A stretch of 64,000 nt of DNA from assembly GCA_034005245.1 (NCBI GenBank), contig JAVEVC010000001.1, forward strand, positions 64,852-128,851. The letters are read 5' to 3'. The notes under the pieces are model-generated. The model was not told the origin of the DNA. It saw nothing but the letters and a program-made list of their open reading frames with translations, and did no database searches. The DNA comes from Bacteroidales bacterium (GTDB lineage Bacteria > Bacteroidota > Bacteroidia > Bacteroidales > VadinHA17). Shown here in pieces: positions 3,390 to 52,027 of the stretch. A program made the position numbers and the translations under genes. The first letter of the stretch is position 1, and each line of letters begins with the position of its first letter.

Positions 3390-6362
3390 TCACTTATTCT
3401 TCATAATAACTCCCCTGTGATTTTTGCCGTCAATCATTACCTCAAGGGGAGAATCAAACCTGACGTGCCTCAGAAAGCTGTTTTCATATATAACCTTTTG
3501 TTTATCAAGATAATCAACATCATAATAACCTTCATTGATATAAGGGTTGATGGTGAAATAGCCCACACGGAAAGAGGTAAGATTCTGGAAAAAATGAGTT
3601 CCCTGGCTGGGATCTATTCTATAGTTCTTAAGTCCCGATTCAACAATCACTCTGGCAGCTGAAATCTGAGGCCACCTGACAGGTATGCCCAGCCACGAAT
3701 CAGCAGAACCCCACCGCCCCGGGCCAATCAGGATATAATTTGTACCTTCCCTGACAAAGCGAGCGTTAATTTTTTCAATTTCAACAGCAATTTCTTTATT
3801 GTCGGCCGGATTAAATGAATCAGGTTTTATGTAAACAAGGTCATAAATACCCTTGATGACGCCATTTCCCAGAGCTGAATCGGCATATATGATTGTATCA
3901 TCAGTAATGATGGAATCGAGATTTATATCACAAATTTCGTCACTATGAACGATTGGCCTGATTTGGAGGAAATTGAATACTTTTGGCGTCCCTGGAGGGG
4001 TTTCAAGATTTGCCGCGAATTCTATCTCAATAGGATTATTCATTTCCTTTTGTCCGAGATCAAGCAGATTATCAAGAATGTCAGACAACGGGAATAACTT
4101 GTGTTGAAGAATATTGGAGAAAGTGATCAGGCGTTTGCCCGGGTAGTTTGTTCCATTACGCAGAATGTTGTTGTTATAATCATAGGTTGATGCAACATAC
4201 CTTAAGGCGCCTTCATTATTGATATCGTTAATCCCTATCCTTAGAATATTTACACCATCATCTGTTGACGGTCTGAAGCTGTCAGTCCTGAGATCAAGAG
4301 CACAGAACTCCTTCTGTGTGTCCCTGAGTGCAGTTTCGGGAGAAGAAAGCTGGAGTATTTTCCGGGAATGTCTGGGTGAGAACCTGAGAGAAATGCCTCC
4401 TTCAACTATAAGCTTGCCAAGACCAAAAGCTATATTGGCAATTCCGTCTTCAGCCTTCTCCGATCCTATGGGGTAATAGTTTATAGAACGTGCAACGCCT
4501 GAGAGAGTCGGGTAATATATTTCACCATGCCTGTTTCCACATACCTCCTGAAGAATAATACCCATCTTCTCCTCATCTATTAGATTGGCAGTAGCTGTCA
4601 TGTAAGCCTTACTGGCCTTGTAATATACTGAAGCGTAAACCTCCTTTATTGCGTCTGACAGCATTTTCACCATAGATTTGTTATCAGGATGCCTGGGTAT
4701 CATATAGGTTGAATAGATCCCTGCAAAAGGTTGATAATGCGAGTCTTCAAGCTTACTTGAAGACCTTACTGCTATTGGTTGGTTTCTAGATATCGACAGA
4801 AACGCGTAGAAATCCTGGTATACCCTTCCCGGCAACTCTGAATTTATGAACCTGGCCAGTATCTCATCATCCGACACGTCAGACAATGCAAAGGAATAGA
4901 GGTTATTATGATCCATGAACTCATCAAAGATGTCAGTACCCAACACGACTGTTCTGGGTATTGTGATCAGCACATCAGGGTATTTGTTAAAGAGCTTATG
5001 GGTTTTAATTAACCTGTTTATGAATGCCAGCCCCCTGGCTTTTCCTCCGATGGAACTTTCTCCTATACGACTGAATATCTGATATTCATCATAGCTCGAT
5101 TTATCAAATTTGGCTATGATCCCTCTCCCCTTTCCAAGCCTGAAGCTCGATATCGCCACATAGAGAAACCTCCGCAGCTCATCCATTGTCTCGAAGTCTT
5201 CATTTCGTATGTACTTGAACATCTGGGCTACAGGGAACAGTGCCCTGGCATTAAGCCACTTTGAGAAATGGTTACGCTTGGCATGAAATTCCAACGACTT
5301 ATCCGGAATAATGAGTATCTTCTGCTGAAGGCTGTGCAGATCAGTTGCTATGGCAATAGGTTCATTTGTATCAGGATTTTTAAAAATAAAAGGTCCGAAT
5401 GCCAGATTCTGAATAATAAAATTTCTCAGTTCAAGGGACAAAGACTTTGAATTCTTGTTTAAAAATCCTGCACCCATCGCTTCTGCTATCTCCTTATGTT
5501 TCGAACTGGACGACTGTAACAGGAAAGGGACCTTGTCATCGTCTGCCATCACCACCTTGCACAATTCAATCCCTGCGTTTTCGTCAACCATATTATCTCT
5601 TTTATAACTGATGTCGGAGATAATGCCCAGTACATTGTATTTGTATTTCCTGTAAAGCTCGAGAGCATCATTATAGTTCGTGGCCAGCAGGATTTTGGGC
5701 CGTCCTCTCATCTTAAGCATGCGTTGGTGTTCATTTAGTGCCTCGCGTTGGAAATCAACAGACTGTTGCAGTACAATTCTGTAAAGATTCGGAAGATAGC
5801 TCGAAATAAACCGAATGGAATTCTCAACAAGTATAATTGCCTGAACACCTATATTTTCAATATCAAAATCAGCATTCATTTTATCCTCTATAAGCTTTAT
5901 GATTGCAAGGATAAGCGATGCGTCGCCGAGCCAGCAAAAAACGTAATCAATGGCACTCAGGTCCTCCCTCTCAAGCCTGAGCGATAGTTCCCTGGAAAAA
6001 TATGTCAGAACGACAATAGGTATCTTCTCGTATTTTGATTTTATCTGTTTTGCCAGGGCAAACACATCGGTTCCCCTTAAGCTGAGCATAGAAATGACCA
6101 GGTCGATCTTTCCTTCCTCAAGAATACGAAATGCATCCTCAGCATTATCAGTCTGAACAAATCCGGGAGGATATTTCAGATTGAGGGAAACATATTCATT
6201 AAAGATCTGCTCATCGATCCTTCCATCCTCCTCCAGCATATAATTATCATAATTACTGCATATGAGAAGAACCCTGTGGATTCTTTTCTGCATGAGCAGA
6301 TTGAAAGGAGTGTCGGTAAAATCATATTTCTGAAGATCATATAAGCCTTCAATGATCGCCAT
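3390..6362 (-). CDS. receiver-domain-fused PEP/pyruvate-binding (PPDK_N ATP-grasp) dikinase-like protein, paralogue A
   Basis: 990 aa. Has an N-terminal receiver-like domain with Met at the acceptor position (DLVISM) and a second receiver-like domain (GIISDISY ... FLNKNS). ATP-grasp motifs follow: GGKARGLAF, AVRSSSKLEDS..FAGIYST, IEIEFA, FLQIRPI. The C-terminus carries LIGPGRWGS and SQGTHFFQN. Confidence 0.75.
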   Translation of the reverse strand: MAIIEGLYDLQKYDFTDTPFNLLMQKRIHRVLLICSNYDNYMLEEDGRIDEQIFNEYVSLNLKYPPGFVQTDNAEDAFRILEEGKIDLVISMLSLRGTDVFALAKQIKSKYEKIPIVVLTYFSRELSLRLEREDLSAIDYVFCWLGDASLILAIIKLIEDKMNADFDIENIGVQAIILVENSIRFISSYLPNLYRIVLQQSVDFQREALNEHQRMLKMRGRPKILLATNYNDALELYRKYKYNVLGIISDISYKRDNMVDENAGIELCKVVMADDDKVPFLLQSSSSKHKEIAEAMGAGFLNKNSKSLSLELRNFIIQNLAFGPFIFKNPDTNEPIAIATDLHSLQQKILIIPDKSLEFHAKRNHFSKWLNARALFPVAQMFKYIRNEDFETMDELRRFLYVAISSFRLGKGRGIIAKFDKSSYDEYQIFSRIGESSIGGKARGLAFINRLIKTHKLFNKYPDVLITIPRTVVLGTDIFDEFMDHNNLYSFALSDVSDDEILARFINSELPGRVYQDFYAFLSISRNQPIAVRSSSKLEDSHYQPFAGIYSTYMIPRHPDNKSMVKMLSDAIKEVYASVYYKASKAYMTATANLIDEEKMGIILQEVCGNRHGEIYYPTLSGVARSINYYPIGSEKAEDGIANIAFGLGKLIVEGGISLRFSPRHSRKILQLSSPETALRDTQKEFCALDLRTDSFRPSTDDGVNILRIGINDINNEGALRYVASTYDYNNNILRNGTNYPGKRLITFSNILQHKLFPLSDILDNLLDLGQKEMNNPIEIEFAANLETPPGTPKVFNFLQIRPIVHSDEICDINLDSIITDDTIIYADSALGNGVIKGIYDLVYIKPDSFNPADNKEIAVEIEKINARFVREGTNYILIGPGRWGSADSWLGIPVRWPQISAARVIVESGLKNYRIDPSQGTHFFQNLTSFRVGYFTINPYINEGYYDVDYLDKQKVIYENSFLRHVRFDSPLEVMIDGKNHRGVIMKNK

Positions 6363-6373
6363 TTTTCAAGCTT

Positions 6374-9300
6374 TTAGTTATCCATTGAAATTACAGCCAT
6401 GCCTTTTTTCCCATCCATCCTGATGAGGAGAGGTTTTGAAAACCTTACGTGCGTAAAAAACTGCCCTTTGGTCACTACTGCCTGGTTACTTATTTTCTCC
6501 CATAACAATACATCTTCATGAAGCTCCTGGTTAACCGACAGGTAACCTACATTCATTGTTGTCACGTTATGGAAGAAATGGGACCCCAGCGATGCATCAG
6601 TATGAAAATCAGGATGCGAGACTTCAACAATTACTTTTGCATTAGAGATCTGGGGCCAGACGACAGGAATACCTATGAATTTATCTCTTGAACCCCACCT
6701 GCCGGGTCCTATTAATACATACTTCCGGGCTTCCTTTATCATTTTTTCATTCATCCCGGCTATCTCAAGAGCCATCCTGCCAGTCGACATATTATCAAAG
6801 TCAGCCGGCTTAATATAAATCACGTCGCTGATATTATCAATCAAGCCGTTTCCCATGCTTTTTTTTGTCAGAAGAATAAGGTCATCCTTGTCAATTGTCT
6901 CAGGTTCAATATTATAACCTGCCACGGTTCCTGTCAGAGGTTTTATTTGAAGAAGATAAAATGAGGCATTACCTTTTTCGTCCTTCATCAGATCAACTGC
7001 AAACTCTATCTCAACTGCAGTACCGCAAGCTTCTTTCACAACATTGAGTACTGTTTTCAGGCTTGAGGCAAGCGGAACATAATTGTATTTCAGTATATCG
7101 GCAAAATTAATAATGCGGGGGCCGGGAGAATCGAGGCCAGCTGTAAGGGCATCATTATCGGGATTCAGCACTGATGCGGAGTGATTTATTGTACCGTGCC
7201 TTTCAGCTTCTGCGATGTCAAGCATGACAAGGCCGGCATTTTCGCCTTCCATAAGGTCTGGATTCATTTTTGTCAGATCAACAGCATAAAAGCTAACCTG
7301 AGAGTTTCTTGAAAGGTCTTTCAGTGACATCATATCCACCGCCGGATATGCAGGAGAGAACCTGAAAGCCCGGTCTCCTTCCATAACATACTGCCCAAGA
7401 CCAACAGCTACAACTGCAATACCTTCATCGGGGGTCATATGGGCAACCGGATAGAAATTAAAGGATTGAGCAACACCGCTTATATGCGGATAAAATGTCC
7501 CGTTAAACCTGTTTCCGACAACTTCCTGGATCACCACTGCCATTTTTTCCTGTTCTATCTTAAAGGATATTGCTTCAAAGTGGGTTTTTGCCTCTCTTGA
7601 GTATATCGATGCAAATACAAGCTTTATTGCATTGGTGAGTTGCTTTAGCCTGACTTCATTCTCAGGATGAGTATTAGGAAGAATATACGTGCCGAATAAT
7701 CCTGCAAACGACTGGTTCATAGAGTCTTCATACAAGCTTGAAGATCGGACAGCCAAAGGCTTGGAAATATGCCTTATAAAAATTCTGAGTCGTTTCTCCA
7801 AAGTATAGCTAAGATCTCCGGCAAGAAACAATTCCTTTACTGACTGGTAATCCTTTTCCTCCTTGACCTTTTCCCACAGGTGGTTGCGCTCCATGAACAT
7901 ATCGAACTCGTCGGTACCAATTATTGCAGTTATAGGTGCTTTTATGCTGATCCCGGGAGTCAGGCGGCCCAGTTCAAAACTGTAAATCAATGTATTAATA
8001 AATGCAAGTCCCCGGCCTTTACCTCCCAGCGATCCCGGGGTAAGGCTCACTACATTTGATTCATCTATAACTGCTGACTCCTCGAAATTGATGATCCGCC
8101 CCTTATTCATTTCCTGCCTGCGCTTCCGGATAATATTAATAAGATATTCACGCATCTCCTTCAGATCATAGAAATCGGTGACTTTGAGCGGATTTATCGT
8201 CCTTGCTATCTTAACCTCCCCTCTTGCCATAAGCCAGCGTGAAAAGTGATTTTTGGTAGCATGATAAGCCAGTGAATCTTCGGGCACTGTTTCGAGATAT
8301 GATTCAAATTCCTTCATCGATCTGGCTACCGCAATTTGCCTCCCCTCATTATCCCTGTAAACAAAATGACCAAATCCCAGGTAATAATTTATGAATGATT
8401 TAAGGTCCTGCAAAAGGGTTTCAGAATTCTTGTTTATAAAATCAGACTTAAGCTTGAAGGCATATTTCCGGTTTTCTGAATCAGATGACTGGAGAACGGT
8501 AGGCAGATTTGGCAGCCTGGTCTTTATGTGCTTTATAAGCTCATATCCTGCCTCATCATGAAGAATCCCATTCCTTGGGAAACGCATGTCGGAAATGACA
8601 CACAATAGGTTATTCTGGTATTTGTCGAAAATATTCACTGCGTGCTCCCAGTCTGAAGCAAGAAGCACTTTTGGCCTTGCTCTGAGCTTGAGAACCTTAT
8701 ACAGCTGATCAGTTGAAACATCCTCAATAAGGCTTTTTGTCTGTTCCATGACCAGTTTATAAAGCATTGGCAGATAGCTTGAGTAATAATCCGCAGAATC
8801 CTCAACGAGAAGAATAACTCCTGTAAGGCCCTTTTTTGTGTCATTATCTACATTAACCTTGTCCTCAAGAAGGGAAACCATTGCAAAAAACACCTTGGAT
8901 TCTCCAGTCCATACGAAATAATTGTCAAACGGCACCCCCAAAGCTTTCTGCTTCTCCACAAATGCCATGTCAGACGGATTATTAATAAGGAGATAAGCAG
9001 GCATATATGGATACTTATCCTTTATTTTCCTGCACATTAACACAGGGCTGTTCTTATCAACGCCGACCATTATTATTACAAGGTCATAATGCCTTTCCCC
9101 CAATCGGTTAAATACCTCCTCCTCACCTGATACTCCTGTCACCCTTGGGATTGAGGAGATGCTTAGATGATAATATTCTCCAAGTATATGATCGGCGAAC
9201 CTGCCTTCGCCTTCTATGGAATATGCGTCAAAAAGGTTGGCAACCAGCAGTATTTCCTTTACCTTGAACGGCTGAAGGTCGTGAAACACGTCACGTTCAG

Positions 9301-9820
9301 CATTGTGCCTGTCGAGGAACTTCTGAAGCAGTTCCTTGCTGGTAAAGTTCAGGATATCATCATCCTCTTTTGGACCATGAGCTGCAGTGCGGATAATATC
9401 GCGAGCTTTATAGCTGTTTATATGTCCTGTAATTAAGCCTGCAATATTTCTGACAAGATCCCTTTCTTCCTTAAGAAAGGGGCCCTCATCCTCCTCCCTG
9501 AATTCCGACAGGTAGAAAATATCGATGGATCCTGTCTCGCCTTCAAGGGTAGTGAAATCCTGAGACATTCTCCACTGCGTCTCTCTGAATCCTACTGATA
9601 CAAATTCAATGTTCGCGTAAGTTACCCTGGCTACCGTGTATTCAGGATATTGCCAGGCTGAAGGGAGTAAAAGCACTATCTGCTGGAGGGTTTCCTCTAC
9701 AGGCTTGCCTTCTTTGAGAATATATGTTGTTCTGTTAATACACGCTAATTCCTTCAGGCGTTCCTGCTGGTCATGCAGCAACCGGCTATATTCGGGTGTA
9801 ATATGATCTTTTTCAGCCAT
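6374..9820 (-). CDS. receiver-domain-fused PEP/pyruvate-binding (PPDK_N ATP-grasp) dikinase-like protein, paralogue B, with an extra N-terminal sensor-like domain
   Basis: 1148 aa. Motif order matches paralogue A: DLVIIM, CVISDMRFPRNG, FINKNS, GGKGRGLAF, AVRSSSLYEDS..FAGLFGT, VEIEFA, LLQIKPL, LIGPGRWGS, SLGSHFFHN. It carries about 150 extra N-terminal residues. It ends 11 nt before paralogue A starts. Confidence 0.75.
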   Translation of the reverse strand: MAEKDHITPEYSRLLHDQQERLKELACINRTTYILKEGKPVEETLQQIVLLLPSAWQYPEYTVARVTYANIEFVSVGFRETQWRMSQDFTTLEGETGSIDIFYLSEFREEDEGPFLKEERDLVRNIAGLITGHINSYKARDIIRTAAHGPKEDDDILNFTSKELLQKFLDRHNAERDVFHDLQPFKVKEILLVANLFDAYSIEGEGRFADHILGEYYHLSISSIPRVTGVSGEEEVFNRLGERHYDLVIIMVGVDKNSPVLMCRKIKDKYPYMPAYLLINNPSDMAFVEKQKALGVPFDNYFVWTGESKVFFAMVSLLEDKVNVDNDTKKGLTGVILLVEDSADYYSSYLPMLYKLVMEQTKSLIEDVSTDQLYKVLKLRARPKVLLASDWEHAVNIFDKYQNNLLCVISDMRFPRNGILHDEAGYELIKHIKTRLPNLPTVLQSSDSENRKYAFKLKSDFINKNSETLLQDLKSFINYYLGFGHFVYRDNEGRQIAVARSMKEFESYLETVPEDSLAYHATKNHFSRWLMARGEVKIARTINPLKVTDFYDLKEMREYLINIIRKRRQEMNKGRIINFEESAVIDESNVVSLTPGSLGGKGRGLAFINTLIYSFELGRLTPGISIKAPITAIIGTDEFDMFMERNHLWEKVKEEKDYQSVKELFLAGDLSYTLEKRLRIFIRHISKPLAVRSSSLYEDSMNQSFAGLFGTYILPNTHPENEVRLKQLTNAIKLVFASIYSREAKTHFEAISFKIEQEKMAVVIQEVVGNRFNGTFYPHISGVAQSFNFYPVAHMTPDEGIAVVAVGLGQYVMEGDRAFRFSPAYPAVDMMSLKDLSRNSQVSFYAVDLTKMNPDLMEGENAGLVMLDIAEAERHGTINHSASVLNPDNDALTAGLDSPGPRIINFADILKYNYVPLASSLKTVLNVVKEACGTAVEIEFAVDLMKDEKGNASFYLLQIKPLTGTVAGYNIEPETIDKDDLILLTKKSMGNGLIDNISDVIYIKPADFDNMSTGRMALEIAGMNEKMIKEARKYVLIGPGRWGSRDKFIGIPVVWPQISNAKVIVEVSHPDFHTDASLGSHFFHNVTTMNVGYLSVNQELHEDVLLWEKISNQAVVTKGQFFTHVRFSKPLLIRMDGKKGMAVISMDN

Positions 9821-9898: not shown

Positions 9899-10936
9899 TC
9901 AGCCAATCTTCCAGGTGGAACCGCTGTGCAGAAGATCATCCATGCATTTGATCCTTGCTTCCTTTTTGACTGCGATTATCTGGTTTTTTACATCCTCCTC
10001 GTAGGTGTGATACGGAACTGATCTTATTACTCCCAGCGCTACCGGATATTCAGGATACTTCATATTTGCAAGCATATAATGTATCCCCGGATTCATTTCA
10101 CAAGGATCATGAACAAGGATGTCTTTTATTGTTATACCGTCCTCCCCCGGTTTTACAACTTTAAGTTTCAATCCATCCAGCATAAGGCCTTTTTCGTTGT
10201 TTGCTCCGAAAAGCATGGGTTCCCCTTTCTTAAGAATCAGGGTTCTGTCGTCGCGCACTTCCCTGTCGGTAATCTTTGAATGTATCCCGTCATTGAATAT
10301 CACACAGTTCTGAAGGATCTCAACCACTGAAGCCCCTTTATGCCTTGCAGCCTGAATAAAGATATCGGTTGAAAGCGCAACATTGGAATCAATAGTACGG
10401 GCAAAGAATTTACCTTTTGCTCCAATAACAAGTTCCCCGACAGAAAAAGGCTCTTCCACTGTACCAAAAGGAGAAGTCTTGGTGACAAGTCCCCTTTCTG
10501 AAGTTGGTGAATACTGTCCTTTGGTCAGGCCATATATTTCATTGTTAAACAATAGAATATTGATGTCAACATTACGCCTGACAACATGTATGAAATGATT
10601 CCCTCCGATTGCCAGAGCATCCCCGTCGCCTGTTATCTGCCAGACTGAGAGATCGGGATTCGCAGTTTTCACGCCTGTGGCAATTGCAGATGCGCGACCA
10701 TGGATACCATGGAAACCGTAAGTATTTACATAATAGGGGAACCTGGAGGAGCACCCTATTCCGGAAACAAAAACAATTTTTTCCTTTGGTACCCCCAGTT
10801 CAGCCAGGGCTTTCTGTACGGCACTCAGCACTGCATGATCGCCGCAACCAGGGCACCACCTCACTTCCTGGTCACTTTTGAAATCTTTAGGATTCAATTG
10901 ATTTGATGTCATATTGATCATTGCTTTATTTCTCAA
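9899..10936 (-). CDS. korB: 2-oxoglutarate/2-oxoacid:ferredoxin oxidoreductase, beta (TPP-binding) subunit
   Basis: 345 aa. Contains the WCPGCGDH motif and the GDGD TPP-binding motif (ITGDGDALAIGGNH). Overlaps the korA stop by 11 nt. Confidence 0.85.
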   Translation of the reverse strand: MRNKAMINMTSNQLNPKDFKSDQEVRWCPGCGDHAVLSAVQKALAELGVPKEKIVFVSGIGCSSRFPYYVNTYGFHGIHGRASAIATGVKTANPDLSVWQITGDGDALAIGGNHFIHVVRRNVDINILLFNNEIYGLTKGQYSPTSERGLVTKTSPFGTVEEPFSVGELVIGAKGKFFARTIDSNVALSTDIFIQAARHKGASVVEILQNCVIFNDGIHSKITDREVRDDRTLILKKGEPMLFGANNEKGLMLDGLKLKVVKPGEDGITIKDILVHDPCEMNPGIHYMLANMKYPEYPVALGVIRSVPYHTYEEDVKNQIIAVKKEARIKCMDDLLHSGSTWKIG

Positions 10937-12764
10937 GAATTTCCAGACATTTATCCTTTATATCCTTTACTGTAAAAGGCAATCCCTGAACTTTATTTAC
11001 CTGTTCATATATGAATTCAGGGTATTTCATTCTCAGGTAACTTGCAAATTGCCCCAGGTTAAGTTCACATACCACTATTTTCCTGAACCTGCTGAAGACC
11101 TCTCTTACATTCCGGGGAAGCGGATTGAGATAATTGAATGTAACGTTGCTTATTTTATATCCTTCAGCCTGAAGCTCCTGCACCGCCATTACCCGGTAGC
11201 CGTATGAGCCACCCCAGCCCACAACGAGCAGGTCGCCGGAATCTTCTCCGCTTACTGTCAGATCGGGCACTTTCTCAGCAACCCTGGCAACCTTCTCAGC
11301 CCTTGCATTAACCATTATTTCATGATTTTCCGGAAGATATGAAACATTCCCTTTTAATGTCTTTTCAAGACCCCCGATACGATGCTCAAGGCCTGGGGTT
11401 CCGGGTATAGCCCAGAACCTGTTAAATTTCTCCGGATCTCTTTTATATGCATAATACGGAAGATCAATCCCGTCGGCGTAGGGAGGTAATATATCAGGAA
11501 GCTCATCCATCGAAGGTATCTTCCATGGTTCAGTTCCATTGGCCAGATAGCCATCTGTAAGAAGAATAACAGGAGTCATGTGCTCAAGCGCTATTCTGGC
11601 AGCTTCAAATGCAAAATTAAAACAGTCGGAAGGTGTACTTGCCGCCATAACAACAACAGGACACTCCCCATTTCTGCCGAATAGGGCCTGAAGAAGGTCA
11701 GTCTGCTCAGTCTTAGTGGGAAGCCCTGTTGATGGACCTCCCCGCTGTACATCGATTATCACAATCGGAAGCTCTGCCATTACAGCTAATCCTATAGCTT
11801 CCGACTTAAGGGCCAGGCCAGGGCCGGATGTGGAAGTTACCGCCAATTTTCCTGCAAAACTTGCTCCCAGTGCAGTGCATATTCCTGCAATTTCATCCTC
11901 AGCCTGAAAGCTTATAACCCCAAGGTCTTTGCGTGAAGCAAGTTCTTCGAGTATTCCTGATGCCGGAGTGATGGGATATGAGCCAATGAAAAGCTGAAGC
12001 CCGGCTTTCTCAGAAGCGGCAATGAGCCCCCATGCTGTGGCTATATTACCGCAGATATTTCTATATTTCCCTTTGGCTATCCTTGCCGGGCTCACCCTTA
12101 TGGGAACCAAAGCTTCAATAGTTTCGGCGTAATAGAATCCTGCACGAAGAGCTATTTTATTAGCCTGGGCTATTTCAGGCCTGCCGGCGAACTTATCATC
12201 AAAGAATTTTTCGGTATGGCTCAATTTCCTGTTGAACATCCAGAATACCATTCCCAGGGCAAACATATTCTTGGTGCGCAGGACAGATTTCTGATCAAGG
12301 CCGAATTCCTTAAGGGCTTCTTTAACCATAGACGAAATTGGAACAGCGATAATGTTATAGTGTTCCAGCTTTTCCTCTACAATAGGATCGGATGTATAAC
12401 CTGCCTTTTCTATGTTTTTTTCCGTGAAGTTATCTTTATCGTAAATAATAGTACCGCCGGTCTTAGTCCACTTTATATTAGCTTTAATGGCAGCCGGGTT
12501 CATTGCAACAAGCACATCTGCGTAATCTCCCGGAGTGTAAATCTGGGAATGTCCCATATGGACCTGGAATCCGGAAACTCCTCCAACAGTACCCTGCGGT
12601 GCGCGTATTTCAGCCGGATAATCCGGAAATGTGGTCAGATCGTTGCCATAGAACGCAGCGGTATCTGAGAATAAGGTTCCGGTGAGCTGCATCCCGTCGC
12701 CGGAATCACCAGAAAATCTTATGACCACATCTTCCTTTTTAATTACTTTCGATTTCTTACCCAT
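10926..12764 (-). CDS. korA: 2-oxoglutarate/2-oxoacid:ferredoxin oxidoreductase, alpha subunit
   Basis: 612 aa. N-terminal gamma-like domain (GDSGDGMQLTG) fused to the POR alpha domain (YPITPAS). Gene order is korA then korB. Confidence 0.85.
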   Translation of the reverse strand: MGKKSKVIKKEDVVIRFSGDSGDGMQLTGTLFSDTAAFYGNDLTTFPDYPAEIRAPQGTVGGVSGFQVHMGHSQIYTPGDYADVLVAMNPAAIKANIKWTKTGGTIIYDKDNFTEKNIEKAGYTSDPIVEEKLEHYNIIAVPISSMVKEALKEFGLDQKSVLRTKNMFALGMVFWMFNRKLSHTEKFFDDKFAGRPEIAQANKIALRAGFYYAETIEALVPIRVSPARIAKGKYRNICGNIATAWGLIAASEKAGLQLFIGSYPITPASGILEELASRKDLGVISFQAEDEIAGICTALGASFAGKLAVTSTSGPGLALKSEAIGLAVMAELPIVIIDVQRGGPSTGLPTKTEQTDLLQALFGRNGECPVVVMAASTPSDCFNFAFEAARIALEHMTPVILLTDGYLANGTEPWKIPSMDELPDILPPYADGIDLPYYAYKRDPEKFNRFWAIPGTPGLEHRIGGLEKTLKGNVSYLPENHEIMVNARAEKVARVAEKVPDLTVSGEDSGDLLVVGWGGSYGYRVMAVQELQAEGYKISNVTFNYLNPLPRNVREVFSRFRKIVVCELNLGQFASYLRMKYPEFIYEQVNKVQGLPFTVKDIKDKCLEILEK

Positions 12765-43902: not shown

Positions 43903-45606
43903 TCAATCGTCCCCTGACTTTACAAACCGGCCTGAAAGGGAAAGTCCGGTCGTGGTATTGGTGAAAACAACAATATAAGCTCCGGCGCCAAGAATGCCTG
44001 TCTCAAGAACGAAAGGATCGGTCCCGGATACAACCTTTTCAAACTCAGCCACACTTTTTCCTGAATGGCTTATAACCCGGATGTTTATTTTTCCAGCCAT
44101 TTTTGACGGAAGCAGTACATTAACCGATGATCTGGAAGGATTAGGATAAATAACCGGCACGCTGGTGTCGGTGCTATCTTTCGGATTGATTGCCTTGCGC
44201 ATAGGTACTTCAATACTTGTCCTTCCCAGGTCAGTTACAATAACATCCTGAATTGTTGTATCACGATATCCGTCAGAAGAGAATGTAAGGTTCCACAGTC
44301 CTGGAGAAAGCATACGCGTGAACCTTCCCGAGAGAGTGTCGCAATATATTTGAGAACTGTCTCTGTCATGCCCATTTATATAGAGCATTGCAGGCACAGG
44401 TCTCCCGCTTTCGTGATCAAGGGTTATCCCATGAATTCCGTACAGGGCATTTTCGATAAATCCTATGATAGACCGGCGGTTAAACTCCCAAAGGTCATTA
44501 AGTTCATTAGCCGGGGTGACATAGTCATCGTCAAGCTCAATTGTTAGTTCCCTGCCTTGGAGTTCCCATGTAACAAAATCCTGCCTGCCTCCGTTAATGC
44601 AATACCATTCAAACCCGTTGGTGATGCCATTATTAAGATCATCCATATAACCCGGCCTGGAAAAGAAGTGAACGGTGTCGGCATAATTTCTGCTTATCTG
44701 GTAAAACCAATCATTGTCAGCATGATATCTCTCCCATTTATCCCATGGATAGTTGACCACCTCCGCCCCTGAATGAAAATTTACTGAAAGAATGAAGTCG
44801 TGTTTCCGCAAGAATTTTATCATATCCACAGTTTCTTTCTGAAAGCTGGTCTTAGGAGTTTCAGCATCGGGGAAATCCCTGTTTAGATCAACCCCATTGG
44901 CATTATCCCTGACAGGAGTAGTGATCTCATCTCCGAATCTATAGGTACCATCCGGATTTGCCAGAGGATTGATCCAAACTTCGAGATTTTGAATAATATT
45001 ACTGATCCTTGGGTCAGACCTGCCGTTCTTCAGCAGGTACTCAGCCAGCCTGAGCATAAGAATAAATCCACCTGTTTCGTCACCATGAATTGTTGATGTA
45101 AGAAATAATCGCGGTACACTTCTTTCATCACCTGTATGGTCAGAGATCCGCAATGCATAAATAAGCCTGCCCTTAATACTCATTCCAATAGTGTCGAGTC
45201 TGCAGATTGCCGGATAATCCCTTCCAAATGATCTCATTATGGAATCGTATTGAGGGAGTGTGGGATAACTATCCCATTGCATTGCCTCTTTTACGGTTGA
45301 TGAATTCCGGAGGCTCCCTGATAAGTCAGGGTCGTATATCTTATAATCGTACCCAAGGGACAGGAACCGTTCAATGTTTCCAGGAGTGACGACCAGATAC
45401 AGTTCGCTGTCCTTCACTGACCTGAATGACATGTTTTCCGAGAGTTCACGGGCAGCAGCTTTTCCTGGCCAGACTATTGAGACATTTGCCTGACCTTTTT
45501 GCTTTACCAATTCCTTCAGTCTGTCCCCCTTGTTACTGCTCTGAGCAAAACACGAAAGACAAGGGAGAGCCAGAAAAAAGAATACTATAGCCCGGAGTCT
45601 GATCAT
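43903..45606 (-). CDS. M14 zinc carboxypeptidase with C-terminal T9SS sorting domain
   Basis: 567 aa. Signal peptide, HGDE zinc motif (TSTIHGDETGG), NPDG and FHSG motifs, and a C-terminal YPNPS... beta-sandwich tail. Confidence 0.8.
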   Translation of the reverse strand: MIRLRAIVFFFLALPCLSCFAQSSNKGDRLKELVKQKGQANVSIVWPGKAAARELSENMSFRSVKDSELYLVVTPGNIERFLSLGYDYKIYDPDLSGSLRNSSTVKEAMQWDSYPTLPQYDSIMRSFGRDYPAICRLDTIGMSIKGRLIYALRISDHTGDERSVPRLFLTSTIHGDETGGFILMLRLAEYLLKNGRSDPRISNIIQNLEVWINPLANPDGTYRFGDEITTPVRDNANGVDLNRDFPDAETPKTSFQKETVDMIKFLRKHDFILSVNFHSGAEVVNYPWDKWERYHADNDWFYQISRNYADTVHFFSRPGYMDDLNNGITNGFEWYCINGGRQDFVTWELQGRELTIELDDDYVTPANELNDLWEFNRRSIIGFIENALYGIHGITLDHESGRPVPAMLYINGHDRDSSQIYCDTLSGRFTRMLSPGLWNLTFSSDGYRDTTIQDVIVTDLGRTSIEVPMRKAINPKDSTDTSVPVIYPNPSRSSVNVLLPSKMAGKINIRVISHSGKSVAEFEKVVSGTDPFVLETGILGAGAYIVVFTNTTTGLSLSGRFVKSGDD

Positions 45607-50671: not shown

Positions 50672-52027
50672 ATGACAAAAGAGCAAAACACAACAATTCC
50701 TTCCGGTTCATATTTCAGACAATCAGATAAACCGCCGGAAATAAGAAGAAAAGAGATAGGGAATTATGCTGTGGCGGCACTTATCTGCATGATAATGTCT
50801 GTGATAATGATATCACTAAATCTCAGGTTGATTGCCGGAATCCTGGTTATAATCTCAGCTGCTGTCCTCCTGCTCATCCTCAGAAAAACATTGCTTCTCA
50901 TCGACACTCTGGAAGAAGCCCTGATTGAGGCATCCGTATCCAATAAAGAAAAAGAAAATATAATAAACGACTTCTCACACAGGATAAGAGAACCCCTGAG
51001 TACCCTGTTAACTATCTCCGAAATGCTTACGGGTTCAGGACTGCAGAAGAAACAGAAAGAACTGATGGAAACCTTCCTTGCATCTACGGGAAACATGATC
51101 ACAACCGTCAATGAGCTTTCCATGGAAAGTGCCGGCAGTTTAAGTTATAATCCCAAAAGCAATATCCGGTTCAACATACTGACTTCGATCCAGAATGCTA
51201 TTGAGCTTTACAGGCTGAAAGATAAATCGAATCTTGATTTCATACTCAACAGGAAAGATTTCAGCGAATATGAATGCGAAGGGGATCCGGTAGTATTGAA
51301 GCAGATCATTCTTGATCTCTTCAATACAATTGAGGATCAGGGCGGAGACAATATCACGAGGGTTGCAATAAACCTGAAAAAGGAAAAAGAGGAAGGCCGT
51401 AAAAGGATCATTAACATCAGGATTCAGACCGACAGGAATATTGTGTTCATTAACGAGGAGCACACGGCTGGGTATCTTTCAGCAAAGCTGATAAGAAACT
51501 GCAATGGCTGGTACAACCAGGAATTTGGTGATAATTCTTCAGTGGTAAACATTTATCTGCCGTTTTCATATCCTGACTCAGGACAGAAGCAGGAATCAGT
51601 GATACAGGCATCAGGGGATGCCTTGAAAAAGGGGAAAGGTGCATCAAGGGACCTGAAGAACATAAACATACTTCTGGCCGAAGATAATCTTATAACCCAG
51701 AAGATAACACTTCTCACGCTGAAGCCTCTTGTGAAAAACATAGATATTGTATCGAACGGCAACGATGCACTTGAAAAGGTGCAGAGCACGGAATATGATC
51801 TTATTCTTATGGACATAAGCATGCCTGTTATGGATGGAATTACTACGGCTAAAAAGATACGGGAGCTTGAGAAAGATAGCGGTTCGCACATCCCGATAAT
51901 TGCCATTACAGCCAATGCCATGGTTGATGACCTTGAGAAATGTCTTGCTGCCGGAATAGATGATTATTTAAGCAAACCTTACTCCTCAGCTGTTCTTCTT
52001 GAAAAGATAAGCAAACTCATAAAGTGA
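50672..52027 (+). CDS. hybrid sensor histidine kinase / response regulator with degenerate ATP-binding domain
   Basis: 451 aa. Two N-terminal TM helices, H-box FSHRIREPLSTL, a shortened HATPase-like region, and a canonical C-terminal receiver (ILLAEDN ... LILMDISMPVMDG ... YLSKP). Confidence 0.7.
   Translation: MTKEQNTTIPSGSYFRQSDKPPEIRRKEIGNYAVAALICMIMSVIMISLNLRLIAGILVIISAAVLLLILRKTLLLIDTLEEALIEASVSNKEKENIINDFSHRIREPLSTLLTISEMLTGSGLQKKQKELMETFLASTGNMITTVNELSMESAGSLSYNPKSNIRFNILTSIQNAIELYRLKDKSNLDFILNRKDFSEYECEGDPVVLKQIILDLFNTIEDQGGDNITRVAINLKKEKEEGRKRIINIRIQTDRNIVFINEEHTAGYLSAKLIRNCNGWYNQEFGDNSSVVNIYLPFSYPDSGQKQESVIQASGDALKKGKGASRDLKNINILLAEDNLITQKITLLTLKPLVKNIDIVSNGNDALEKVQSTEYDLILMDISMPVMDGITTAKKIRELEKDSGSHIPIIAITANAMVDDLEKCLAAGIDDYLSKPYSSAVLLEKISKLIK

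Follow-up and report, generated by a model that had tools for sequence, protein, structure and literature searches.

Paired receiver-fused ATP-grasp proteins with an invariant C-terminal histidine in Bacteroidales, and their possible link to the 2-oxoglutarate/glutamate node

In rifampin phosphotransferase (RPH; PDB 5HV1), as in the characterised PPDK_N enzymes, a histidine is loaded from the beta-phosphate of ATP (PMC4844700). In VadK (Rv1127c of Mycobacterium tuberculosis), a PPDK relative in which an ATP-grasp and a His domain occur without a TIM barrel, the histidine is autophosphorylated and the protein regulates methylcitrate-cycle enzymes (PMC13400623). Here we describe two adjacent genes, A and B, in a 64,000-nucleotide stretch of DNA from a Bacteroidales bacterium (contig JAVEVC010000001.1, positions 64,852 to 128,851; referred to as the window), whose products combine an ATP-grasp domain of the same type with two receiver (REC) domains and a C-terminal domain carrying an invariant histidine. 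A and B are best read as paralogues within an uncharacterised family of response-regulator-class enzymes. An earlier note, made from the letters of this DNA, could not assign the architecture to any characterised enzyme, and this agrees with our results, in which no characterised enzyme shares it: NCBIfam scores lay far under every cut-off, and searches of the searchable literature gave no paper on the architecture and nothing relevant on DUF5752/PF19027 or on the genomic link to glutamate dehydrogenase (GDH) described below.

RPH resembles A and B in that its N-terminal ATP-grasp is of the same type, its His domain is C-terminal rather than central, and there is no TIM barrel. However, about 430 residues in its centre form a rifampin-binding domain, its swivel domain is a canonical PF00391 one, and it has no receivers; the NCBIfam model RIF_Ptrans_rph gave 23 bits, with a cut-off of 999. 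VadK is the closest functional model for A and B, although it is a protein of 490 residues with a canonical PPDK His domain and without receivers, and the likeness drawn here is through PPDK_N only. Phosphoenolpyruvate (PEP) synthase and PPDK share with A and B the PPDK_N ATP-grasp with its conserved Lys, Arg, Glu and Gln, whereas in A and B neither profile nor fold searches detect a swivel domain, and the PEP-utilizers_C barrel is absent. On the receiver side the nearest likeness is PleD (PDB 1W25), in which a true receiver and a pseudo-receiver also stand in tandem before an enzymatic output. In A and B the second receiver is the complete one, and the output is an ATP-grasp plus a His domain rather than GGDEF. 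In PleD the phosphorylated receiver is the first. Regulators that act by phosphorylation and are connected with GDH, glutamate synthase and 2-oxoglutarate-oxidising enzymes are represented by PknG with GarA/OdhI, at the 2-oxoglutarate node of Actinobacteria, and by EI-Ntr (PtsP) of the nitrogen PTS, in which an N-terminal sensor domain is coupled to a phospho-His enzyme. Neither system is homologous to A and B; the same enzyme classes adjoin the family, and the analogy is one of gene neighbourhood only.

A and B are real, strongly conserved genes. They are co-oriented open reading frames on the minus strand, 11 nucleotides apart (Table 1), and their products are 35% identical over 973 residues. 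In a survey of 80 species-level genomes of uncultured Bacteroidales, orthologues of A were 79-87% identical and those of B 65-82% identical. The motifs quoted in the earlier note (GGK[AG]RGLAF, [IV]EIEFA, LQI[RK]P[IL], LIGPGRWGS and G[TS]HFF[QH]N) occur at equivalent positions in both proteins, and the two candidate histidines, His923 of A and His1081 of B, are each encoded by CAT at the positions it had given. A further motif, AVRSSS..EDS...FAG, is also present in both, but its EDS and FAG are separated by four residues, not three. None of the PADLOC anti-phage defence models matched.

Conservation of individual residues was counted in an alignment of 138 diverse homologues, with identities down to 30%. 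Seven residues of the ATP-grasp domain (K441, R533, S534, E539, D540, E781 and Q800) are each present in all 138 sequences; as these are invariant, the nucleotide site of A fits catalytic competence, judging from the residues it keeps. When an AlphaFold2 model of A, built on the 138-sequence alignment (pLDDT 87.3, pTM 0.81), was compared with the PDB by Foldseek, RPH (5hv1) came first with an E value of 3e-13, followed by the tandem receiver of PleD (2e-7); the isolated ATP-binding domain in 5hv6 gave a TM score of 0.66. The assignment of a PPDK/PEPS-type ATP-grasp is thus upheld by the Pfam match, by the invariance of the nucleotide and Mg residues and by the top structural match. The absence of a PEP/pyruvate TIM barrel was likewise borne out, with no PF02896 match at E<=1 and 185 residues left after the ATP-grasp. 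The NCBIfam models for PEP synthase, PigC, RedH and RPH matched about 150 ATP-grasp residues at 23-51 bits, against cut-offs of 598-1350, and the best score of any dikinase equivalog was 50.9 bits against a cut-off of 883. In public records relatives are named "phosphoenolpyruvate synthase" or "PEP/pyruvate-binding domain-containing protein". As the TIM barrel is absent and the NCBIfam scores fall below the cut-offs, these names do not describe function, and names such as "phosphoenolpyruvate synthase" are wrong for the A/B family. The suggestion that the layout is closer to RPH held for the ATP-grasp, for which RPH is the top Foldseek match, but not for the rest of the protein, which lacks an RPH-like substrate-binding domain and has only some 19 residues between ATP-grasp and C-terminal domain. 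The Rph_4th domain had no Pfam match in A or B.

The C-terminal domain contains the histidine that the earlier note proposed as a phospho-carrier, and this residue is invariant in 138 of 138 homologues. Ten other residues of this domain are equally invariant (R883, G885, G892, P894, E908, S919, G921, F924, F925 and N927, besides H923). The linker of about 19 residues that joins it to the ATP-grasp is of lower confidence in the model of A, in which pLDDT drops at 801-810 and around the His loop. A separate model of the domain by itself, built from 63 sequences, reached a pLDDT of 94.5 and a pTM of 0.91. Its elements run in the order three N-terminal strands, helix, strand, short helix, strand, His-helix, strand and C-terminal strands. 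The swivelling beta/beta/alpha phospho-His fold has a characteristic order of elements, a [TS]-His at a helix N-terminus and a flexible tether, and the C-terminal domain appears to recall it in these respects. Searches for such a relationship returned nothing: there was no Pfam match, PF00391 included, at E<=10; a profile of the domain had zero matches to PDB sequences at E<=10; NCBIfam gave nothing for the module; hhalign against canonical swivel domains gave a probability of 0.5% with one domain and 0.3% with four, from RPH and PEP synthases; and Foldseek of the isolated domain against PDB and BFVD returned no match at E<=1e-3 and only noise with TM below 0.37, the top 50 results being without a PPDK, PEPS, EI or RPH entry. 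In the 1.7 Mb of loci retrieved, a jackhmmer search for more swivel domains turned up a single one. The canonical GGxTSH of PF00391 is absent, and the invariant G[TS]H sits in a different domain. With PF00391, PDB profile, hhalign and Foldseek all null, the reading of this module as a diverged phospho-His swivel domain is unproven, and the domain is more conservatively labelled as family-specific, carrying an invariant His. An alternative alignment of GPGRWGS..LGIPV to GGxTSH..LGIP, with R883 at the position of the histidine, was dropped because the model shows no helix there.

The proposed N-terminal fusion to receivers was confirmed as two REC folds in a PleD-like tandem. Pfam Response_reg matched A at E 4e-11 in two stretches and B weakly, at E 2e-4, and the receiver fold of A is supported in addition by matches to receivers in the PDB and by Foldseek hits to the receivers of PleD and PhoP. 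In an alignment with FleR, the phospho-acceptor position of the first receiver of A is Met92, and its column holds Met in 114 of the 138 homologues and Asp in none. Because the acceptor position has Met, and never Asp, this domain is a pseudo-receiver by its sequence, a point that the earlier note did not cover. In the second receiver the residues E180 (136/138), D250 (131/138), S284 (133/138) and K303 (134/138) are kept, and in the model of A they lie at the ends of beta1, beta3, beta4 and beta5 as in a canonical receiver active site. The receiver Asp is missing in 7 of the 138 homologues, and some architectures lack one or both REC domains, while the His and the ATP-grasp are kept in all. 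As Asp or REC is lost in some members while His and ATP-grasp stay, the conservation pattern marks the receiver as probably an accessory input rather than the final acceptor, and the ATP-grasp plus C-terminal domain as the probable core. The linker domain between receivers and ATP-grasp consists, in the model of A, of a beta-hairpin plus helices; apart from the DUF5752 match of B (Table 1), searches of this region against Pfam, NCBIfam and PDB sequences found nothing. The N-terminal domain specific to B had no match in Pfam, in NCBIfam or among PDB sequences.

A profile of the C-terminal domain, searched against 1.84 billion representatives clustered at 50% identity, matched 2129 proteins at E<=1e-3 and 567 at E<=1e-30. 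All seven members scanned with Pfam had PPDK_N directly upstream of the C-terminal domain. Full-length members have about 990 residues (A-like) or about 1140 (B-like), some being longer and some tandem fusions. Those that are named come mostly from Bacteroidota metagenome-assembled genomes, with Spirochaetales and Myxococcota members too. Three proteins of 1523-1654 residues (P0241, P0259 and P0261) have two matches to the C-terminal module per polypeptide; P0241, the one of the three scanned with Pfam, has two PPDK_N domains. These three look like tandem fusions of the family that echo the B-A gene pair. In Candidatus Sulfidibacterium hydrothermale (locus L081, 728-3088, minus strand), a canonical RPH-like gene with PPDK_N, Rph_4th and PEP-utilizers domains lies 7 kb from an A-like gene, so that this one genome holds both kinds of PPDK_N protein.

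The surroundings of distant relatives were surveyed in 80 diverse loci, retrieved from metagenomes with the most distant family members as seeds, and the neighbouring genes were clustered. There was one dominant partner, present within 6 kb in 37 of the 80 loci, mostly on the same strand and at a median gap of 258 nucleotides. It is an NADP-specific GDH (Pfam ELFV_dehydrog; NCBIfam PRK09414 at 757.7 bits, cut-off 536). Among 70 immediate co-directional neighbours (less than 500 nucleotides away) were 25 GDH genes, 7 paralogues and 3 genes with a Glu_synthase domain, and nearly all the others had just one or two matching neighbours. The link was seen in 19 of 33 clusters at 60% identity and in 10 of 13 at 50%, the GDH-linked family members have a median identity of 41%, and GDH was found both upstream and downstream. 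As the link is spread over clusters at such a median identity and on both sides, it is not one inherited arrangement. In four loci an A orthologue (56-65% identity) comes immediately after a B orthologue that includes the N-terminal domain, the latter at 41-53% identity. In two of these loci (L131 and L141) GDH comes after B-A, and in another (L123) B-A is followed by an asparagine synthase gene (asnB), with GDH upstream. Because the B-A order recurs beside GDH or asnB in distant loci, the pair is an old, conserved unit tied to nitrogen-assimilation genes. Separately, a solitary A-like gene in L164 has an ammonium transporter gene (3918-5129, minus strand) 3 kb upstream, a single case that may be coincidence.

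In the window's own clade the neighbours are different. The pair lies downstream of korA and korB (Table 1), and KorA passes the NCBIfam subfamily cut-off for alpha subunits of 2-oxoacid:acceptor oxidoreductases (TIGR03710, 635.8 against 482.75). Among the 80 clade genomes KorB is upstream in 75 and KorA in 72, and nearly all share the gene order bamA-ompH-ompH-murI-korA-korB-B-A, with fabD facing it. B is missing in five of these genomes, in which A directly follows korB. No terminator-like site was found between korB and B in a scan built on sigma-70 rules, which do not fit Bacteroidota. Like the GDH link, the korAB link had not been part of the earlier note.

We tentatively propose, as a possibility that we would not put at even odds, that A and B are receiver-gated and regulate the 2-oxoglutarate/glutamate node by ATP-dependent His phosphotransfer. 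The proposal draws on the chemistry of RPH, the precedent of VadK, the invariant His and ATP site, and the recurrent operon link to enzymes that produce or use 2-oxoglutarate and glutamate. The following steps are envisaged: Mg-ATP would be bound by the ATP-grasp; by analogy with RPH, the beta-phosphate would be taken by His923 of A or His1081 of B, with release of AMP and Pi; the phospho-His domain would hand the phosphoryl group to a target; and this activity would be gated by the receiver Asp (Asp250 of A, Asp411 of B), phosphorylated by a histidine kinase encoded elsewhere, with the extra N-terminal domain of B as a putative second input. Gene neighbourhoods would place the target or process at the 2-oxoglutarate/glutamate node, the candidates being NADP-GDH for most lineages and, for that of the window, the 2-oxoacid:ferredoxin oxidoreductase KorAB. 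As the B-A order is conserved, this suggests that A and B act together. The broader claim, which we regard as doubtful, is that they represent an unrecognised class of signalling enzyme, in which the response-regulator output is an ATP-grasp that loads the His of a structurally new carrier domain, which then controls GDH and 2-oxoglutarate:ferredoxin oxidoreductase by phosphorylating them or in another way.

Several findings weigh against the His-phosphotransfer proposal. In none of the searches did the C-terminal domain show a relation to the canonical phospho-His swivel domain, and what points to its being a phospho-carrier is the invariant His plus analogy, and those only. A target-binding domain is not evident in A or B. 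A cognate kinase is not conserved nearby, with PF06580 kinases adjacent in 3 of 164 loci only. The GDH link is absent from the clade 55-63% identical to A, in which the gene is solitary and the surroundings of A-like genes at 57-62% identity vary, and it was seen in 0 of 82 loci of the window's own clade. There, korAB adjacency lies inside a long syntenic block and may reflect inherited order rather than functional linkage; since the whole block is syntenic, this adjacency alone is weak evidence. Nor is the substrate specificity of KorAB, 2-oxoglutarate included, settled by the NCBIfam model.

Other explanations have to be weighed against the same data. A and B might be small-molecule dikinases that phosphorylate a metabolite of the 2-oxoglutarate/glutamate/ammonia node, with the C-terminal or linker domain as substrate site and the receivers tuning the activity. 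This would agree with the operons containing the metabolic genes gdhA, asnB and korAB and with the polar HAxRNHFSxWLxAR motif of the linker, which could bind a ligand; and all characterised PPDK_N enzymes other than VadK phosphorylate or activate something that is not a protein, be it a metabolite, a drug or a glucan (PMC4844700). Against it, two receivers on a purely metabolic enzyme would be unusual, no domain comparable to a TIM barrel or to the RIF-binding domain is present, and many members are solitary, without pathway context. We consider it unlikely. It is improbable, too, that there is no phospho-carrier at all, the ATP-grasp sensing or hydrolysing ATP or acting as a ligase, and His923 belonging to a ligand or partner site in an energy- or nitrogen-sensing scaffold. 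In favour of this, the C-terminal domain lacks detectable swivel homology, and the GPGRWG[ST] loop, E908 and the helix N-terminus look, in our own reading, like a phosphate or ligand site. Nevertheless, the catalytic residues of the ATP-grasp are all invariant, and the fusion of PPDK_N to the C-terminal domain, found in all members scanned, runs through a short flexible linker, which is what a mobile carrier needs.

Alternatively, the pair might form a self-contained phosphorelay, in which ATP-grasp and His module would together be a non-canonical histidine kinase with its own or its paralogue's receiver Asp as acceptor, and the phosphorylated receivers would bind partners, e.g. GDH. Here the lack of a conserved kinase nearby would count in favour, as would the presence of His and Asp sites in one polypeptide, the recurrence of B-A pairing and the model of A, whose predicted compactness (pTM 0.81) would allow inter-domain contact. 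But the Asp is lost, or REC wholly absent, in members whose His and ATP-grasp are invariant, and to our knowledge it is without precedent that a PPDK-type His passes its phosphoryl group to the Asp of a receiver. In our judgement this explanation is very improbable. For an ordinary PEP synthase or PPDK there is practically no chance: the names in the records and the PPDK_N match point that way, but domain content refutes it, as there is neither PEP-utilizers_C nor PF00391 and NCBIfam PEP-synthase models reach at most 51 bits against cut-offs of 598-1063.

Should the broader claim of a new class of signalling enzyme be true, Bacteroidota and several other phyla would have in this system a switch that sets their carbon-nitrogen balance by phosphorylation; and should the His domain be a phospho-carrier, dikinase chemistry would not be tied to the classical swivel as its carrier fold. 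What the observations themselves show is a family that is very strongly constrained and misnamed in public records, numbering about 2,100 clusters at 50% identity, in which two well-studied modules, receiver and PPDK-type ATP-grasp, are united with a domain that has no structural relatives. Its recurrent operon link to NADP-GDH gives a concrete hypothesis on regulation of the 2-oxoglutarate/glutamate branch point in anaerobic Bacteroidota and others.

Table 1. Genes A and B, their domains and the adjoining korAB genes (window positions; residues are those of the respective protein)
Feature	Residues	Position	Strand	Remarks
Gene A		3390..6362	-	990 aa: pseudo-REC, REC, linker, PPDK_N ATP-grasp, C-terminal His domain
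A REC1, pseudo-receiver	~28-160	5883..6281	-	FleR alignment, column counts, (beta-alpha)5 pattern in model
A REC2, complete receiver	~173-320	5403..5846	-	E180, D250, S284, K303
A Asp250 codon		5613..5615	-	predicted phospho-acceptor of A
A helical linker domain	~321-430	5073..5402	-	conserved HAxRNHFSxWLxAR motif
A ATP-grasp, PPDK_N type	~431-805	3948..5072	-	Pfam 436-808, E 8.5e-33
A C-terminal alpha/beta domain	812-990	3393..3929	-	LIGPGRWGS loop and SxG[TS]HFFxN motif
A His923 codon		3594..3596	-	candidate phospho-carrier; invariant; N-terminus of helix 922-930 in model
Gene B		6374..9820	-	1148 aa: A-like layout plus ~175-aa N-terminal domain
B-specific N-terminal domain	1-175	9296..9820	-	putative sensor; kept in distant B orthologues
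B REC1, pseudo-receiver	~187-320	8861..9262	-	same pattern as A
B REC2, receiver	~334-481	8378..8821	-	Asp411, codon 8588-8590
B linker domain, DUF5752-like	~482-590	8051..8377	-	PF19027, E 9.8e-06, 25.5 bits against cut-off 23
B ATP-grasp, PPDK_N type	~591-964	6929..8050	-	Pfam 597-966, E 1.5e-37
B C-terminal domain	~970-1148	6377..6913	-	His1081, codon 6578-6580
korB		9899-10936	-	78 nt from B, same strand
korA		10926-12764	-	with korB a two-subunit 2-oxoacid:acceptor oxidoreductase by Pfam, directly upstream of pair

Histidine kinases were seen beside a few members of the family. In two loci (L002, 2591-5414, and L005) a LytS-type histidine kinase (PF06580) and a LytTR regulator lie between korB and B, and in a third (L137, 7055-9961) a PF06580 kinase follows the B-A pair. 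PF06580 may be the cognate kinase class, but these neighbouring kinases, in 3 of 164 loci, were too rare to be accepted as cognate. The window itself encodes a 451-residue hybrid kinase-like protein (50672-52027, plus strand) with HisKA and a C-terminal receiver and no HATPase_c match; it lies about 40 kb from the A/B pair and has no evident link to it.

Elsewhere in the window, an M14 carboxypeptidase with a Por_Secre_tail, the type IX secretion sorting domain, is encoded at 43903-45606 on the minus strand, which supports the origin of the window from Bacteroidota. At 1325-2375 on the plus strand, the open reading frames for 6-pyruvoyl-tetrahydropterin synthase and GTP cyclohydrolase I overlap by about 40 nucleotides; the latter is listed from a TTG start, and its true start is probably further downstream.

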